Shown: positions 1 to 7,425, counted from the stretch's first letter. The stretch is 7,518 nt of DNA from a virus (IMGVR_UViG_2675903313_000007), one strand, 5' to 3'. The notes: a model not told the origin generated them from the letters alone. Numbers and translations are program-made.

Positions 1-434
1 GCAATATGCTCACTGGCTACCTGCATCAGGTTGTTTTTTGTTTCTTCCGCCTCCCGGATCCGGAACAGTTTTTCTGCTTCTGCATCTTTCACCCAGGCTG
101 TGCCGTTCCACTTCTGAAACTCCCCTTCCGGCGATAACCAGGTAACATTTTCCGGTAACGGACCGAGTTCAGAAATAAATAACGCGTCCCCTGATGCCAC
201 GTCATAAACTGTTTTACCCCGATGGTCTTCAACAAGATGCCACGATGCCTCATCACTGTTGAAAACAGCCACGAAGCCTGCCGGAATATCTGGCGGTGCA
301 ATATCGGTACTGTTTGCTGGCAGACCTGTATGAGGCGGAATATATGCGTCACCTTCACCAATAAATTCATTAGTTCCGGCCAGCAGATTATAAATTTTTA
401 TGGTCCGTGCTTGTTCACTCATTCTGAATGCCAT
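1..434 (-). CDS. tfa: Tail fiber assembly protein Tfa, 5' partial (N-terminal 144 codons; 3' end lies beyond window position 1)
   Basis: Not in the ORF track because it has no stop inside the window. My own minus-strand translation from the ATG at 434..432 gives [144 protein letters not shown]..., with no stop through position 1. This matches the N-terminus of lambda Tfa as I recall it. The start overlaps the stf stop by 1 nt (TAATG), which is typical translational coupling. Confidence 0.85.
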
Positions 435-3133
435 TATGCAAGCCTCACAATATAGTTAAATGCGATGTTTTTGACGGTGTTTTCCGCGTTACCAGCAGCG
501 TTAACGGTGATGGTGTGTCCATGTGAACCAATCGCAACGGAGTGCGTATGAGCACCAATACCGACAGTATGTGCATGTGCGCCTGCGCTTGCAGCAGTGC
601 CGGACAGCGAGTGGGTATGAGCACCATCTGATGATGTCTTCCCTGCATTACGAGTCTGGCCACTACCGCTTGTTGTGCTCATAATCCCCGCGCTTGGATT
701 TGAAATCGCGGTATAACCATTAGGGAAAATGCTCGTGTTCGTGCCACCAAATGCACCGGAACTCTTGTGTTGGTGCGCACCGGCACTATTTGCAGTCCCG
801 CTAATACTATGGGTATGCGCCCCGGTGTTATTCGTGGATTTGGTTCCGTAATCAAACGACGATGTGTTTTTCGTCCCCAAATCCGTACTGGATGCGCTGG
901 CGCTGTGGGTGTGCGATTTAATGCCGTCCTGTTCCTGAGACAATACGGCTCGACCACTGGCGGGTTTGCCCTTAATCGTCCAGCCACGCATATCAGGGAT
1001 CACGCCTGACGGATAAGCGGCTGCAAGTTTCGGGTATGCAGATTTGTCAAAAGTCTGCCCCTGCATCAGGGCATAGCCAGACGGAACGGTATCTGATGGC
1101 CACGGGATTGGTGCGCCAGGCGGATAAAACTGCTCTGATGGCGTATAGAGTGAATAAACTGTACCGTCCGTTAACCCTTCCGGCTTATTAGCAGAATATG
1201 CTGGTGACGTATGAATCGTCACGCTGGCATTACTGGTATAATCCCATTGAATATTTACACCAGTCGCATAATTTCCGATTGCAACGTAAATATCGTAAGT
1301 ATCACCAGATGTATTGACCCAGGCAAAATTTGTAAACCCTGTCGATGTGCGCTGCCATAAAGCACCAGTAATCCCCTTCGGATTACCATTACCTGCACGC
1401 AAAACAAGTTCAGATATACCTGCCTGTTGAGGTGAACCGACGTTAAATCCAGCGCCACCAATCAACGTAATTGAAACAACAGAACTCGCCTGTGGCATGG
1501 TTACCGTTGCTAATTTGAACCAACCAGCACCACCGCTGAATGACATTGTTGTTGAGTTAAGCGTACCAATATCTTTCGGCGTCAGTGTTATATCCTCCGA
1601 AAGCGCCTTACCATTCACCTTACGGTCAGAAGGTACCCGATCATTCGCATTGTCATTCGCTGCTTTAACTGCCTTCGGTGTCGCGGCAAGCGTTTCAGAC
1701 GTACTGTTGGTCGCACTGCTGAGCTGTACTATCCCCTTTTTCGTCGTGCTCGCATCCTCAAGCGCCACGGCGGATGCAATATCCTCTGCCCGTTTTGCCG
1801 CTGTCTCAGCGCGCGTTGCTGCGGATTCTGCCGTACTTTTGCTCTGTGCTGCCGCTGTCGCACTGCCAGCAGCCTCTGTCGCCTTTGTGGATGCCGTCGT
1901 GGCGCTGCTCTTCGCTGCTGACGCCTGTCTGGTCGCCTCATCTTTTGAAGCAGACGCCGATGATGCCGATGACGCCGCCGAACTGGCGGACGATGCCGCT
2001 GCCGTTTTTGAGGATTCTGCGCTGGTTTCCGACGCTTTCGCGTTCGTTTCGGATGTCTTCGCTGAGGAAGCAGACCTCGCTGCTGCGCTGGCCTGTTCAG
2101 TGGCTTCGCCAGTCTTCGTTGTGGCTGTTGAAGCGGATGATGCGGCGCTTTCTGCCGATTTTCCGGCGGCGGTGGCACTGACTGAGGCCTGCCCGGCACT
2201 TATTGATGCGGCACTGGCGGACGACGCAGCCGCTGTTTTTGAATCTGCCGCAGCTGAGGCGCTCTGTCCCGCTGCTGTTTCAGAAGACTTAGCGTTCGTC
2301 TCGGACGTTTTTGCCGCCTTCGCGGAATTTCCTGCCGCCGTTGCCGAGGAAGCTGCACTACTGGCACTTGATGATGCATTCGTTTCTGAAGATTTCGCTG
2401 CCTCTTTTGAGGCCGCCGCACCCCGTGCCGAGGTGGCAGCTTCTGACGCCTTCGTGGTCGCTGTGGATGCAGAAGTGGCTGCCGATTTTTGTGATGCTGC
2501 GGCATTCGTTTCTGACGTTTTCGCGGCACTGGCGCTGGTAGCTGCCGCGCTTTTTGATGACTCTGCAGCAGCAGCACTTTTTGCTGCTTCACGGGCCTTT
2601 GTCGATGCCGTTCCTGCGCTGGAAGACGCTGACTGAGCCGACGACGCGGCCTGTCCGGCTGACGTGCTGGCGGCACGTGATGAGGCTGCAGCATCGGTTG
2701 CATGAGTTGCCGCCTCGCTGGCTGATGCACTGGCATCGCTGGCTGATTTTTTCGCGGCTGCCGTATTCTGTGCAACCGCGGAGGCGTTACGTGACACCTC
2801 TTCTACCATCTGCTCAAAGCGGCGCAGTGCCTCCGGTCGGACATCATCCTCCGTCATGGCACCGAGAAAATCATTCAGCGTACCTGGTCTGGAACCTTCA
2901 TAGACGGTAATGGTCCCGGCATGTGAAGGCGGAAAACCTTCAACCAGCAGGGTGACGCTGTACTGACCATGCTCAACATCCATGCTGTAACGTCCGGCTT
3001 CATCCGGATTTTCAGAGGCCACCGTGTTCACCACCACCGTGCTGCTGGTTCGTCTGGCCTTCAGCACAATGGTGCAGTTCTGTACTGGTTTTCCTGTGCC
3101 ATCTTTAAGCACGCCAGAAATTTTTACTGTCAT
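434..3133 (-). CDS. stf: Side tail fiber protein Stf (899 aa, intact)
   Basis: ORF track 434..3133 minus, coordinates including the stop. The N-terminus [28 protein letters not shown]...[25 protein letters not shown] closely resembles lambda Stf, as does the C-terminus (GAPIPWPSD...[31 protein letters not shown]...[31 protein letters not shown]), which carries repeated G-[AS]-H-x-H motifs. An SD-like GGTGGA sits 6 nt upstream of the ATG on the minus strand. Confidence 0.92.
1769..2776 (-). repeat. Ala/Ser/Thr-rich low-complexity shaft-coding region of stf, with dispersed near-identical 22-26 nt motifs encoding (A)AK(T/S)SETNA
   Basis: Stf residues ~120-455 are almost entirely A/S/T/K/E. The motif occurs four times on the plus strand at 2039..2060, 2292..2317, 2396..2418 and 2503..2528, all encoding K(T/S)SETNA on the minus strand. 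Boundaries are approximate. Confidence 0.6.
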
Positions 3134-3144
3134 ACTTTTCCACC

Positions 3145-3180
3145 AATAAAAAAAGCCCGCAGCAGTGACGCCACGGGCTT
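3145..3180 (-). terminator. Candidate rho-independent terminator between lom and stf
   Basis: Read on the minus strand: AAGCCCG-(14 nt loop)-CGGGCTT, with the core GC stem at 3155..3159 paired to 3174..3178, immediately followed by TTTTTTTATT (plus-strand A-run 3145..3154). It ends about 12 nt upstream of the stf ATG. The loop is large, so confidence is moderate. Confidence 0.5.
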
Positions 3181-3284
3181 CAGGACAGTGTAACTTTACG
3201 TTTCCTCAAACGCAGTTCACCCCATAAGGTGGATGAACCTGCGTATCATAACAATATTTACAGAAGATAAATCGGCGTCTGTTG

Positions 3285-3884
3285 TCAGAAACGGTATCCG
3301 ATACCAACAATAAATGCATCCGTTCGCCAGTCGCCACTACCGGAACCTTCATAAGCAAGGTCAATGGTCACGGATTCGGTCGGGTTAAACTGCACGCCAG
3401 CCCCCCACGCCAGAGACGTGTTGCTGTGGCGACCGTCATCACTTCCGGTCAGCACATCGTGCGTTTTCCCCTTGTTGTCAGTTACGCGGAGATAATCCCC
3501 GGAGAAAGTCGACACACGGCTGTAAGCCACACCCGCCATCGCATACGCGCTGAACCATTCATTCACGCGTACAGACGGCCCCGCCATCACGCTGAACCAG
3601 CGGTTACGCACGGAATCTTCATGCCAGCGGGTATCGCTGTAGCGCGTTTTTTGCTCATCCTCAGCATTGGCATAACTGAAGGACGTAATCAGCCCCAGCG
3701 CGTCCGTAAACTCATAACGGTATTTCACGTTAATCCCGTTCAGATCATCACTACCGGGAACGTTCGTCGAGGCATGGAGATACCCCGCGCTCAGCGTGGA
3801 CTGATGTTCTGCTGCACTCGCTGGCGTAGCAGCGGCGACCTGCCAGACTACTGCGGACAAAATAACAGCACATAATTTACGCAT
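3285..3884 (-). CDS. lom: Outer membrane protein Lom (Ail/Lom/PagC/OmpX family, 199 aa) with N-terminal signal peptide
   Basis: ORF track 3285..3884 minus. The product begins MRKLCAVILSAVVWQVAAATPASA (signal-peptide-like) and ends AYEGSGSGDWRTDAFIVGIGYRF, with a C-terminal aromatic residue typical of beta-barrel outer-membrane proteins. Internal blocks (GINVKYRYE, SVMAGP, SAYAMAGVA) match lambda Lom as I recall it. An SD-like GAGAGG sits 5 nt upstream of the ATG. Position between J and stf is the same as in lambda. Confidence 0.92.
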   Translation of the reverse strand: MRKLCAVILSAVVWQVAAATPASAAEHQSTLSAGYLHASTNVPGSDDLNGINVKYRYEFTDALGLITSFSYANAEDEQKTRYSDTRWHEDSVRNRWFSVMAGPSVRVNEWFSAYAMAGVAYSRVSTFSGDYLRVTDNKGKTHDVLTGSDDGRHSNTSLAWGAGVQFNPTESVTIDLAYEGSGSGDWRTDAFIVGIGYRF

Positions 3885-3905
3885 AATTACCTCTCGCTTT
3901 TCTGC

Positions 3906-3932
3906 AATAAAAAAGGCGCCATTTCTGGCGCC
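3906..3932 (-). terminator. Candidate rho-independent terminator between J and lom
   Basis: Read on the minus strand: GGCGCCA-GAAA-TGGCGCC, a perfect 7-bp GC-rich stem with a GNRA-type tetraloop (plus 3915..3932), immediately followed by TTTTTTATT (plus 3906..3914). It lies 20 nt downstream of the J stop and ends about 21 nt upstream of the lom ATG. Confidence 0.65.
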
Positions 3933-3951
3933 CGTATCTGGGTTATAAAAT

Positions 3952-6900
3952 TCAGCTAATCGTGATGCCTGCAGTGGCTTTCTTCATCACCACAACCAGC
4001 AAATCGCTGATACTTGCTGTGGGATACCAGTTATTTACCAGCCATGCTGACACCGAAAACTCCAGTGTCATGTGACCGTGACCGGCAGGCATATCAATAA
4101 CACCACTGTAAATCAGCGTATTATCCAGCGCGGTACGGTTATAAATTTCAGCACCGTTTTTCCGCACTATCAGACGGCATGAGGAGTAAATATCAGTATG
4201 CTCTTTCTCATGTTTAGCGCCGCTGAATGCCACCGCCGGAATAACAATCTGCCGGTCAAACGGCTGATCGTCATAAACCCTGACGGTAATGGTTCCTGAT
4301 GGCCACCGCTCCGGTGCACGGGAGTCCCGGGGGAAAGCTTTGCCCACTGTTTTAACGAGATCGCCTTCAATCTGGTTCGCGGACAATTTTCCCAGAACCC
4401 GACAGTTCTCGTTAATCGTGACGTTGTTGAGCGTCCCGGAGTTCGCATTCACGTTACCGCTGATATCGGCATTTTTCGCCGTCAGCCGCCCGTCCGGTGT
4501 CAGGGAAAATGCCGGAGGATTACCGCCGCTGGTAATGGTGGGAGCCGTCAGATATTTCAGGAACACTTCATTCATAAATATCTGATCGCCCTGACCAACA
4601 AACATCGGCTTTGTGTTGCCATTCGCAGGATTAATCATCGCAATCCTGTCTGCCGCCAGCAGCACCTGACTCTGCATTCCTGCTGGCGTATTCTCAATAC
4701 CGGCACCGATACCCGCAATATAAAGGCGTCCGTCCTGCATCTGCTGCAGTTTCACGGCCCACATGCTGTTCAGGTTATTATTTGTATCAACCTGAACTTT
4801 CTGTATCTGCTGGATTGCCGCACTCTGATTTTCCAGTTTTTTATTGACGGTCTGCGTGATTTCATTGCTGACATTCGTAATGGACGTCCTGATTTCAGCC
4901 AGGTCCGGCGCAAGCTGACCGTTATCAATCTGCGTCCACAGCTCCTGGGCCAGATGTGTTTTCCCGATTTCTCCTTTGAAAAAATCCAGGTAACCTTCCG
5001 CATCATCGCTCGCCCGACCGACAGCCTCCACGAATGCCGATTTGCCAACAGTATTCACACTGCGGATATAAAAATAATAATCATGGCCCGGTTTGATATT
5101 GATACTGGCAGCTATCCAGTACAACGCCGAGCCAAGATAGCGGGCTGCGGTTTCAACCTGCCTGATATCCGCAATCCGCTTTTCCGAGAACCAGAACTCA
5201 AACTGTACCGTCGGGTCATAAACGGCAAGATGTGGCGTTGCGGTTATCTGAAAATAGCCCGGCGTCAGCTCAATCCGCGACGGTGCTGCCGGTGCGGCAA
5301 TCCGGAAGGTGGTGGTGGCAGGTTCACCCTGCTGGCCATAGCTGTTTATCGCCCGCACCGTCAGGGTGTATTCCCCGAGCGGCAGACCACTGAAACGATG
5401 CTCTGTATCCGCAGTGATAGCGGTGGTCACCAGACGGCTGTCTTCTCCGCTTCCGCTGGTCAGTCGCAGACTGAAGCGCACCCCCTTCACCACCCGCGGC
5501 GTGTCCCATTTCGCCTGTGCCAGATACTGGCCGTCAGCTGCGCTCACCTCCACCGTCAGGTGCTGCACTGCCGGTGGGATGACGCTGTTCAGGGAGCCTG
5601 ACTGCGGCTCAAAGCGGGCACCGTTATCCACGATGGCTTCTTTTTCCGGTACGTGCTGCACCGCCGTGATGGCAAAGGTGCCGTCCGTGTTTTCCCGGAC
5701 GGAGACACAGCGGAACAGGCGACGGCGCAGTGACGGCAGGGAGAGTCCCCACACCCCGTATGTCTCCACACCATCAGGCAGGGTACTGACCTGTATCCGG
5801 TCCGGCGCGGGGTGTGCGGTGATGTCCACACTCACCGGCTTACCGCTGCCGTTAATCAGGTTCACCGCCGATGTACCTGTCTCCGGCAGGGTAACCTCAC
5901 GGTCCAGCGTCAGGGTGCGGGTGGCAGCATCAATGGACAGGACACGTCCGCCGGTCATAGTCCCGGCATAGTCGTTATCACAGATTTCAATAATGTCACC
6001 CGGTGTGTGACGCAGCCCCTGTGACCCGAGCGTGAAGTCCACCGTCTGCGTTTCCAGCAGTCCGGTCTTTATCACCCACAGACCTGCACGGTGAGCCTGA
6101 CCGCGGCTGGTACAGCCAAACGCATCCATCTTCAGCAGATTGCGCCCGTAGCGCAGTATGGCTTCCGGGTCTTCCACCAGTTCCGTGGAGGTCTGCCAGC
6201 CGTTCTGCGGGTCGGTGTAATTCACCTCCACCGCCGTGTGCCGGTCCTTCAGGGCACTGAAGCTGTAGCGGAACCCCACGCCGTTATCATCCACCACCAC
6301 ATCGCTGTTGGTGTACGGCCACACCACATCCGACGGGCGGTCCTGAACGAACGTCAGCGTCTGACCGTTCCATACCGGCATACAGCGCATCGCAGAGCAG
6401 AAATCACTGAGAACGTCCCACGCCTTACGCTGTTGTGCCAGGTACGCATTAAAGGTCATCCGCGGCTCGGTCCCCCCGAAACCATCCGGGACCGTCTGGT
6501 CGCAGTACTGCCCGATGGCATACAGCGCCCACTTGTCCACATCCGCCGCCCCCAGACGTTTTCCCATGCCGTAGCGCGGGTGAGTCAGCATGTCCCACAG
6601 GCACCAGGCCGGGTTGTTGCTGTATGCCGGTTTCAGACTGCCGTCCCAGATACCACTGTACGTGCGTTTTTCCGGGTCATAGTTTGACGGCACCTGGATG
6701 ATGCGACCGCGGATATGGTAGTTCACCGTCATCTGCTGGCCGCCGAACTGCTCCGCATCCACCTGCAGCCCCACAATGGCCGTGTTCGGGTAGCACTGTT
6801 TCACATCGATGATTTCGGTGTATGACGACCACAGCGTCTTATTCTGCAGCTGGTCCGTGGTGCTGTCCGCTGTCTCCCGGACCATCCGGATGTTAAAAGG

Positions 6901-7425
6901 ACGGGGAGGCAGATTATCCAGAATCACCGACGCCAGAAACTGCGAGGTGGTCTTGCCGTTAATGGTGACATCCTTTTCTGTCACCCAGTTACCGTTACGC
7001 TGTAACTGAATCAGCAGGCGGACGGATGTCGGGTTTCGGTCACCCTTTGACGTGGTCTGCACCAGTGACTGCACCCCGAAGGTAACCCGCAGGCGGTCAA
7101 TGTTCGCGGACGTAATGGTGCGCGTCACCGGTTTTGCCTTCGTCACTTCCACGCCCAGTCCGGTTTCAGCACCGGAGGACTCAAAGCCTTCCGGTGGTGT
7201 CTGCTCCTGCTCCCCGGCGCGCCAGACCGCGGTCACACCGTGTATCACGGGATTACCGTCCGTGTCCGTCAGCGGGGTTTTGTTCACCAGAATACTCTGC
7301 AGGCCTTTCACCGGGCCTTCTATCGGTCCCTCACCAACCGCATCAATCACGCTCATCATCTGCGTGGATTTGAGATTATCCTTCGCCTCGCGCGGTGTGT
7401 GCGCCCTGCCGCCGCCTTTGCCCAT
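3952..7425 (-). CDS. J: Central tail fiber / host specificity protein J (tail tip protein, 1157 aa)
   Basis: ORF track 3952..7425 minus. The N-terminus [39 protein letters not shown] is near-identical to lambda gpJ, and long internal stretches match it as I recall it (e.g. [54 protein letters not shown] and [38 protein letters not shown]). An SD-like GGGGAAGG sits 4 nt upstream of the ATG. Confidence 0.95.

Follow-up and report, generated by a model that had tools for sequence, protein, structure and literature searches.

The stretch of viral DNA analyzed here (IMGVR_UViG_2675903313_000007; 7,518 nucleotides, referred to as the window) bears all of its long genes on the minus strand, with the side tail fibre gene stf located downstream of J and lom (Table 1). 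The same J-lom-stf order is found in lambda and in annotated E. coli prophages, where tfa immediately follows stf. Pfam assigns the N-terminus of the Stf protein to PF08400 (aa 1-134, E 4.7e-70), and aa 1-94 match PDB entry 9e7m (Ur-lambda StfN, E 3e-47); the limits given in Table 1 for this N-terminal region were borrowed from Yu et al. 2025 (PMC12617516). Further along the protein, aa 440-505 match the phage Mu tail fibre S (PDB 5yvq), and aa 656-899 match the T4 gp37 tip (PDB 2xgf, E 1.3e-82). This distal part includes a Pfam Collar domain at aa 673-720, a Phage_fiber match and, as in T4 gp37 and lambda Stf, His-x-His repeats. The PF08400 N-terminus, the gene order and the T4 gp37-type tip are those of a lambda-type prophage side tail fibre, and the Ala/Ser/Thr-rich segment between the two ends is its shaft. 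The first 496 residues of Stf are 100% identical to two partial E. coli proteins, and the best matches of the whole window to complete genomes reach 96-97% identity. A 379-aa antisense ORF overlaps the Ala/Ser/Thr-rich region.

Table 1. Features of the window; positions are counted from its first nucleotide.
Feature	Position (nt)	Strand	Stf residues	Basis
J	3952-7425	minus		ORF list; 1157 aa
lom	3285-3884	minus		ORF list; 199 aa
stf, side tail fibre gene	434-3133	minus	1-899	ORF list; 899 aa + stop
N-terminal collar/attachment domain and linker	2831-3133	minus	1-101	9e7m match; limits per PMC12617516
Shaft, 49 heptads	1763-2791	minus	115-457	heptad listing, Fourier analysis, self-blastn, AF2
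12-nt perfect direct repeat ATCAGCCAGCGA, two copies (2715-2726 and 2736-2747)	2715-2747	minus		repeat search, L008 alignment
K(T/S)SETNA unit 1	2501-2521	minus	205-211	motif search
K(T/S)SETNA unit 2	2375-2395	minus	247-253	motif search; left end of the 33-heptad-allele deletion
K(T/S)SETNA unit 3	2291-2311	minus	275-281	motif search; L066 crossover point
K(T/S)SETNA unit 4	2039-2059	minus	359-365	motif search; right end of the 33-heptad-allele deletion
15-heptad block without lambda counterpart (315 bp)	1898-2212	minus	308-412	global, heptad-wise and three-way DNA alignment
Conserved post-shaft segment	1664-1762	minus	458-490	(near-)identical in lambda and relatives
Distal receptor-binding tip	437-1168	minus	656-899	2xgf, Pfam Collar and Phage_fiber, lambda alignment

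When the shaft is written out in rows of seven residues, it resolves into 49 heptads running from R115 to A457 in unbroken phase, with the consensus (S/T)-S-A-(S/T)-x-A-x. Position 6 is Ala in 47 of the 49 heptads (96%) and Val in the first and the last one, position 2 is Ser in 37 and position 3 Ala in 33. Fourier analysis of the distribution of Ala yields peaks at periods of 3.5 and 7.0 residues, 50-100 times above the median power, and in 15 of 18 off-diagonal self-blastn matches within the shaft the offset is a multiple of 21 nt. Ala, Ser and Thr make up 72-78% of the segment, and its 343 residues contain three Val, two Ile and no Leu. This seven-residue (21-nt) period, the organising principle of the segment, had been missed by the first-pass annotation.

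An AF2 monomer model of aa 95-480, computed with no alignment, is helical throughout (mean pLDDT 74.9), with a fold-back at aa 255-258. The resulting helical hairpin is probably a monomer artefact, and the helix assignment alone was used here; a comparable fold-back artefact has been described for full-length Stf (Yu et al. 2025, PMC12617516). In the same study, modelling based on cryo-EM, cryo-ET and AlphaFold3 placed residues 102-393 of Ur-lambda Stf in a trimeric proximal coiled coil; for Ur-lambda, trimeric Stf, four fibres on each tail and faster adsorption are known (PMC12617516). The Ala/Ser-rich region that follows PF08400 in fibre proteins of E. coli prophages has likewise been identified as a trimeric coiled coil via CD, ultracentrifugation and EM (Ghosh et al. 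2012, PMC3368898). This region, termed PCoil, displays an A-x-x-A/S-x-x-S period, almost no Leu, Ile or Val, and length differences in multiples of seven (PMC3368898). The window shaft shares with it the seven-residue period with fixed small residues and the near absence of Leu, Ile and Val. Like the PCoil of the EHEC prophage collagen-like proteins EPclA and EPclB, it is Ala/Ser-rich and directly follows PF08400; the PCoil of these proteins is trimeric and alpha-helical by experiment (PMC3368898), the window shaft by prediction. EPclA and EPclB differ in having a shorter PCoil followed by collagen triple helices and PfC domains, whereas in the window a 343-residue coiled coil would lead to a gp37-type tip.

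Comparison with lambda first of all confirms the size difference that had been noted for Stf, 899 aa against about 774 aa. Ur-lambda Stf was rebuilt from NC_001416 by joining orf-401 to orf-314, which are separated there by the known frameshift, and the joined protein measures 774 aa. It contains three K(T/S)SETNA units, one fewer than the window protein, as previously stated. In the global alignment, lambda shows one clean gap of 105 aa facing window aa 308-412, a placement ambiguous by a few residues, so that 105 of the 125 extra residues form one block within the Ala/Ser/Thr-rich segment, where most of the extra length had indeed been located; the remaining 20 come from a central module unrelated between the two proteins and from small indels within the tip. 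The two proteins have in common the J-lom-stf-tfa gene context, the N-terminal domain, a heptad shaft, the post-shaft segment and a gp37-like tip. Lambda differs by its 34 heptads, its three units, the lack of the 15-heptad block and a central module unrelated to window aa ~490-655.

A closer counterpart of the shaft is found in StfR of the K-12 Rac prophage (WP_000279097.1, 1120 aa). StfR has the same N-terminal domain, a shaft of 49 heptads at aa 115-457, K(T/S)SETNA units starting at 205, 247, 275 and 359, and the same post-shaft segment; shaft identity to the window is 94.8% at the protein level, and the region is 91.5% identical in DNA over 1,444 nt. Past ~aa 490 the modules of the two proteins differ, as do their lengths (1120 vs 899 aa), and the distal half of the window Stf belongs to the lambda / T4 gp37 type of tip. 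Two other close E. coli relatives of 930 and 1056 aa carry exactly 49 heptads as well, with units at 205, 247, 275 and 359 as in StfR. Since the shaft is constant at 49 heptads in proteins of 1120, 930 and 1056 aa, protein length varies through the distal modules and not through the shaft.

Shaft lengths were then compared among 80 IMG/VR loci, identified with the N-terminal 118 aa, by measuring the distance from an N-terminal anchor to the LEDA...GIVQLS anchor, the post-shaft segment (aa 458-490) serving as C-terminal anchor for the heptad counts. Loci in which both anchors are present display distances of 119, 231, 336 and 343 aa, corresponding to 17, 33, 48 and 49 heptads, compared with 238 aa or 34 heptads in lambda; 26 of these loci belong to the 49-heptad class. 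An additional allele of 18 heptads (126 aa) occurs in strain 503440, and further relatives have other C-terminal anchors behind the same sort of heptad shaft. Lengths of 119, 126, 231, 238, 336 and 343 aa differ in sevens, as described for PCoil. One class (L013, L016 and L017) has a distance of 335 aa, the loss of a single residue having disrupted the phase; therefore, strict heptad quantisation is not absolute. Anchor-to-anchor distances took the place of a heptad walk demanding Ala or Val in each heptad, which stopped early in diverged relatives. Two protein samples were also set aside: a search with the N-terminal 118 aa returned short assembly fragments only and was replaced by the IMG/VR loci and complete genomes, and the homologue set for aa 1-496 consisted of near-identical, mostly partial proteins biased to the query length, and was unusable as a length sample.

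A copy that spans 80% or more of a 1,444-nt query comprising the N-terminus and the shaft is present in 3,560 (about two thirds) of 5,426 complete E. coli genomes. In a sample of 60 matches spread over the ranking, all 40 with full coverage are single colinear pieces with 89.6-97.5% DNA identity, and their spans equal that of the query, one being a single base shorter. The lambda-type junction, by comparison, occurs in at most 97 of the 5,426 genomes, an upper bound because megablast may join the query halves across the gap of 49-heptad alleles; several of the genomes listed belong to laboratory strains, BLR(DE3), C43(DE3) and J53 among them. An equivalent megablast with the 33-heptad junction matched 1,378 genomes, a number that is not an allele frequency since the 336-nt gap of 49-heptad alleles was bridged; single-piece exact matches do exist. 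As 49-heptad copies predominate and the lambda junction is confined to at most 97 genomes, the window shaft represents the norm and lambda is unusual: 49 heptads is the usual E. coli shaft length, and lambda has a rare short form. Tabulating homologues does reveal shafts that differ in length, between 17 and 49 heptads, yet 49 heptads with four units is the common form, and the former description of the window shaft as expanded does not hold. Common descent and horizontal transfer, rather than selection for a particular length, could account for the predominance of this form.

The junctions between length variants were mapped by heptad-wise alignment combined with three-way DNA comparison. The 33-heptad allele (L042 class) corresponds to the window without aa 248-359, its junction switching from unit-2 to unit-4 context inside the CAGCGAA with which both units begin. 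In the 48-heptad allele, 21 nt are missing between the two copies of ATCAGCCAGCGA, as seen in the three-way alignment with L008; the copies lie 21 nt apart and mark the site of the 48- vs 49-heptad polymorphism. In the 17-heptad allele, SSAQSAS is joined to SSASSAS, and lambda, joined at SSASAAS/SSATTAS, has a less clean junction at the DNA level. A chimeric locus (L066) follows the window almost identically as far as the third KTSETNA and resembles another type of relative (L035) afterwards, placing the crossover inside unit 3. Repeat-mediated length change therefore occurs in this family, at microhomologies of 7-12 nt and with heptad phase nearly always kept, but it does so rarely. Its direction, argued from allele frequency and the clean junctions rather than from a rooted phylogeny, would be deletion from 49 heptads and not insertion.

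The shaft might instead be regarded as a contingency-type hypervariable locus, in which dispersed short repeats promote frequent slipped-strand or unequal recombination, with the result that fibres of different length occur in a host population and host range is adjusted. Several length classes exist, units 2 and 4 form the exact ends of one deletion, perfect 12-nt repeats flank a one-heptad indel, one chimera has its crossover inside unit 3, and potential recombination partners are available, at a median of 2-3 related copies per genome. We nevertheless consider this very improbable. The 1,444-nt region has stayed colinear across 89.6-97.5% identity in about two thirds of the complete genomes, exact repeat runs extend over just 8-14 nt, and Tandem Repeats Finder, applied to the window, detected in the shaft just a 25-nt trace with a 9-nt period and no tandem array. 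Two of the roughly seven mapped events, the unit 2-4 deletion and the L066 chimera, touch K(T/S)SETNA, which is not clearly above the share of the shaft occupied by the motif, and enrichment of the motif at junctions cannot be claimed from about seven events. The earlier proposal that the repeats give rise to fibre-length variation between related prophages hence stands insofar as such prophages do differ and some junctions fall on repeats; the variation is rare, and the locus is not hypervariable. A separate reading, in which conserved heptads such as K(T/S)SETNA serve as linkers in register, where recombination shortens shaft segments or swaps them between divergent prophage fibres with the phase intact, is a speculative option that we judge unlikely on the present junctions; a few further heptads that recur might play the same part. 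If it were true, shaft length and type would be exchangeable modules, like receptor-binding tips.

The four K(T/S)SETNA units are nonetheless a genuine feature of the protein. In 5,000 shuffles preserving the composition of each heptad position, four occurrences of SETNA were never reached (0/5,000), and their recurrence is therefore not due to chance. At the DNA level, the 22-26-nt motifs, formerly described as near-identical, turned out to share 80-88% identity, the longest exact runs measuring 8-14 nt; the copies agree at 23-30 of 45 positions and differ mainly at third codon positions. The shaft copies are too diverged for Tandem Repeats Finder. Rather than recording a recent duplication, the units are old copies preserved at the protein level.

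The first-pass annotation had derived the fourth unit from an internal duplication of about 250 bp, based on similar stretches of roughly 85 aa behind units 3 and 4. In its strongest form, this reading states that a recent, tandem-like event of that size lengthened the shaft of a lambda-like ancestor. The window indeed has one unit more than lambda, and the best protein run of 5-6 heptads lies at an offset of 84 aa (aa 269/276 vs 353/360, 67-69% identity). However, the likeness behind the two units spans only ~5-6 heptads (~35-42 aa; TSETNAK, xSETxAx, xSKTAAA, SSASxAx) and ends there. Over 12 heptads, protein identity is 0.49 vs a background of 0.40, DNA identity is 0.444 vs a mean of 0.435 over all heptad pairs, and the top-scoring protein offset differs from 84 aa. 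Self-blastn matches of 45 nt (offset 252 nt) and 30 nt (offset 231 nt) accompany the likeness, the best DNA matches thus requiring a shift by one heptad, and a self-comparison of the shaft for off-diagonal similarity returned no match above 50 nt, with identities of 72-88%. Shuffling the order of heptads equalled the best runs in 92-403 of 1,000 protein trials (9-40%) and in 170-286 of 500 DNA trials; the run at 84 aa was equalled by 92-167 of 1,000.

Low sensitivity does not account for this negative result, because the same matrix method detects a true duplication elsewhere: in L035-type relatives it finds a 9-heptad (189-bp) duplication with 87.5% DNA identity vs a background of 0.49. Moreover, the block missing from lambda (aa 308-412) coincides with neither proposed copy, and K-12 StfR and the majority of E. 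coli genomes, at ~90% DNA identity, keep the same arrangement of 49 heptads and four units, so that any duplication must be ancient, older than present diversity. The shaft displays neither long copies above background nor copy-number polymorphism among close relatives, and hence fails to qualify as a segmental duplication or VNTR. A ~250-bp internal duplication is absent from the shaft, and its recent origin by such an event is largely refuted and most improbable.

A third reading, in which the segment is an unstructured low-complexity linker whose periodicity is a by-product of biased composition or of the antisense frame, could draw on the Ala, Ser and Thr content and the overlapping 379-aa ORF, yet it is hardly credible given a seven-residue phase held over 49 repeats with one position 96% Ala, which composition bias does not produce, phase-keeping indels between alleles, a model that is helical throughout, and biophysical and cryo-EM/ET support for the coiled coil of homologues (PMC12617516, PMC3368898).

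We therefore favor, with a probability of roughly 0.87, a coiled-coil shaft of 49 heptads that represents the common E. coli allele and arose without recent duplication. In this reading the shaft would be a homotrimeric alpha-helical coiled coil of 49 consecutive heptads, its core positions probably filled by Ala and the flanking ones by Ser and Ala. At a coiled-coil rise of ~0.148 nm per residue, the 343 residues would extend over ~51 nm, vs ~35 nm for the 238 residues of lambda. The shaft would thereby serve as a stiff spacer of ~51 nm that joins the tail-clamping N-terminal domain to the distal receptor-binding tip, and its length may influence adsorption. Only in-phase changes would keep the coiled coil continuous, and shaft length accordingly moves in seven-residue steps. 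The K(T/S)SETNA heptads are old repeats held at the protein level, with DNA copies that have diverged at synonymous sites. The window carries the common allele and lambda, with 34 heptads, a rare shorter one; the rare alleles of 17, 18, 33 and 48 heptads may have arisen via occasional in-register deletions at 7-12-nt microhomologies, and divergent co-resident prophage copies exchange shaft sequence as well. Taken together, the first-pass annotation is partly confirmed in its observations and partly supported in its interpretation.

The feature is already known, being a described structural element in its commonest form. As a discovery it carries little weight, the same shaft being present in K-12 StfR and both the coiled coil and the seven-residue steps having been published. 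It does show that lambda, the reference phage, carries an atypically short shaft, and counting by register provides a simple measure of shaft length. Natural in-phase junctions are now mapped at units 2/4, at unit 3 and at the 12-nt repeat at aa 129-142, and these could serve as guides when Stf fibres are made chimeric or altered in length for engineered lambda delivery particles.

The Ala/Ser/Thr-rich heptad shaft of Stf varies among relatives. In three IMG/VR relatives (L013, L016 and L017), deletion of a single residue at Stf aa ~185–191 converts KSAAAAE to KSAAAES, leaving the 38 heptads downstream of it out of their original phase in a shaft of 335 aa. Hexad discontinuities in trimeric coiled coils have reportedly been described to give rise to beta-layers. 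By analogy, and provided that the Stf coiled coil is trimeric, the discontinuity in these three proteins may form a local beta-layer.

A separate shaft family is represented by the IMG/VR relative L035 and similar proteins (788–798 aa), which carry six K(T/K)SETNA units. This shaft type contains a true tandem duplication of nine heptads (189 bp, 87.5% DNA identity) at L035 Stf aa ~178–304. The shaft of another related locus, L066, is chimeric, being of the window type as far as the third KTSETNA and of the L035 type beyond it, with the crossover located inside the KTSETNA motif itself (Stf aa ~276). Compared at the protein level, a further relative (L077) displays the same heptad pattern as L066.

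The 379-aa ORF on the opposite strand of the shaft has a counterpart in the lambda record, named orf206b and listed there as a hypothetical protein. The 379-aa ORF is probably no gene and free of stop codons only because GCN and TCN codons recur periodically along the shaft. The majority of database relatives of the window Stf, encoded at 434–3133, are annotated as “partial”, many of them stopping within or just past the shaft, and the median number of related copies per genome is 2–3. Probably, stf is a frequent break point of short-read assemblies.

Upstream of stf, terminator-like structures follow both J and lom. A 20-nt direct repeat (family D14; 3137–3156 and 3898–3917) forms the tails of the post-lom and post-J hairpins, respectively, which suggests that lom is bracketed by similar terminators. 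In many ST-related E. coli genomes (H51–H70, and the flanks of IMG/VR loci L051–L060), the match to the window spans ~8,751 nt, and a “macro domain-containing protein” gene is annotated inside the J-lom-stf-tfa region of these same genomes. This gene is a possible candidate for a moron insertion.

Features located in and around stf (window coordinates)
Feature	Position	Strand	Stf aa	Source
Terminator-like GC-rich hairpin followed by a T run, directly after J	3914–3933	-		
Terminator-like GC-rich hairpin followed by a T run, directly after lom	3152–3181	-		
379-aa ORF, antisense to the stf heptad shaft	1497–2636	+		ORF list
Central module, flanked by the conserved post-shaft segment and the gp37-like tip	1168–1660		~490–655	

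The central module of lambda Stf is unrelated to that of the window, and the module is different again in StfR, the side tail fibre of the Rac prophage, and in other relatives. Overall Stf length among the relatives ranges from 685 to 1680 aa, with the variation stemming mostly from this central module.
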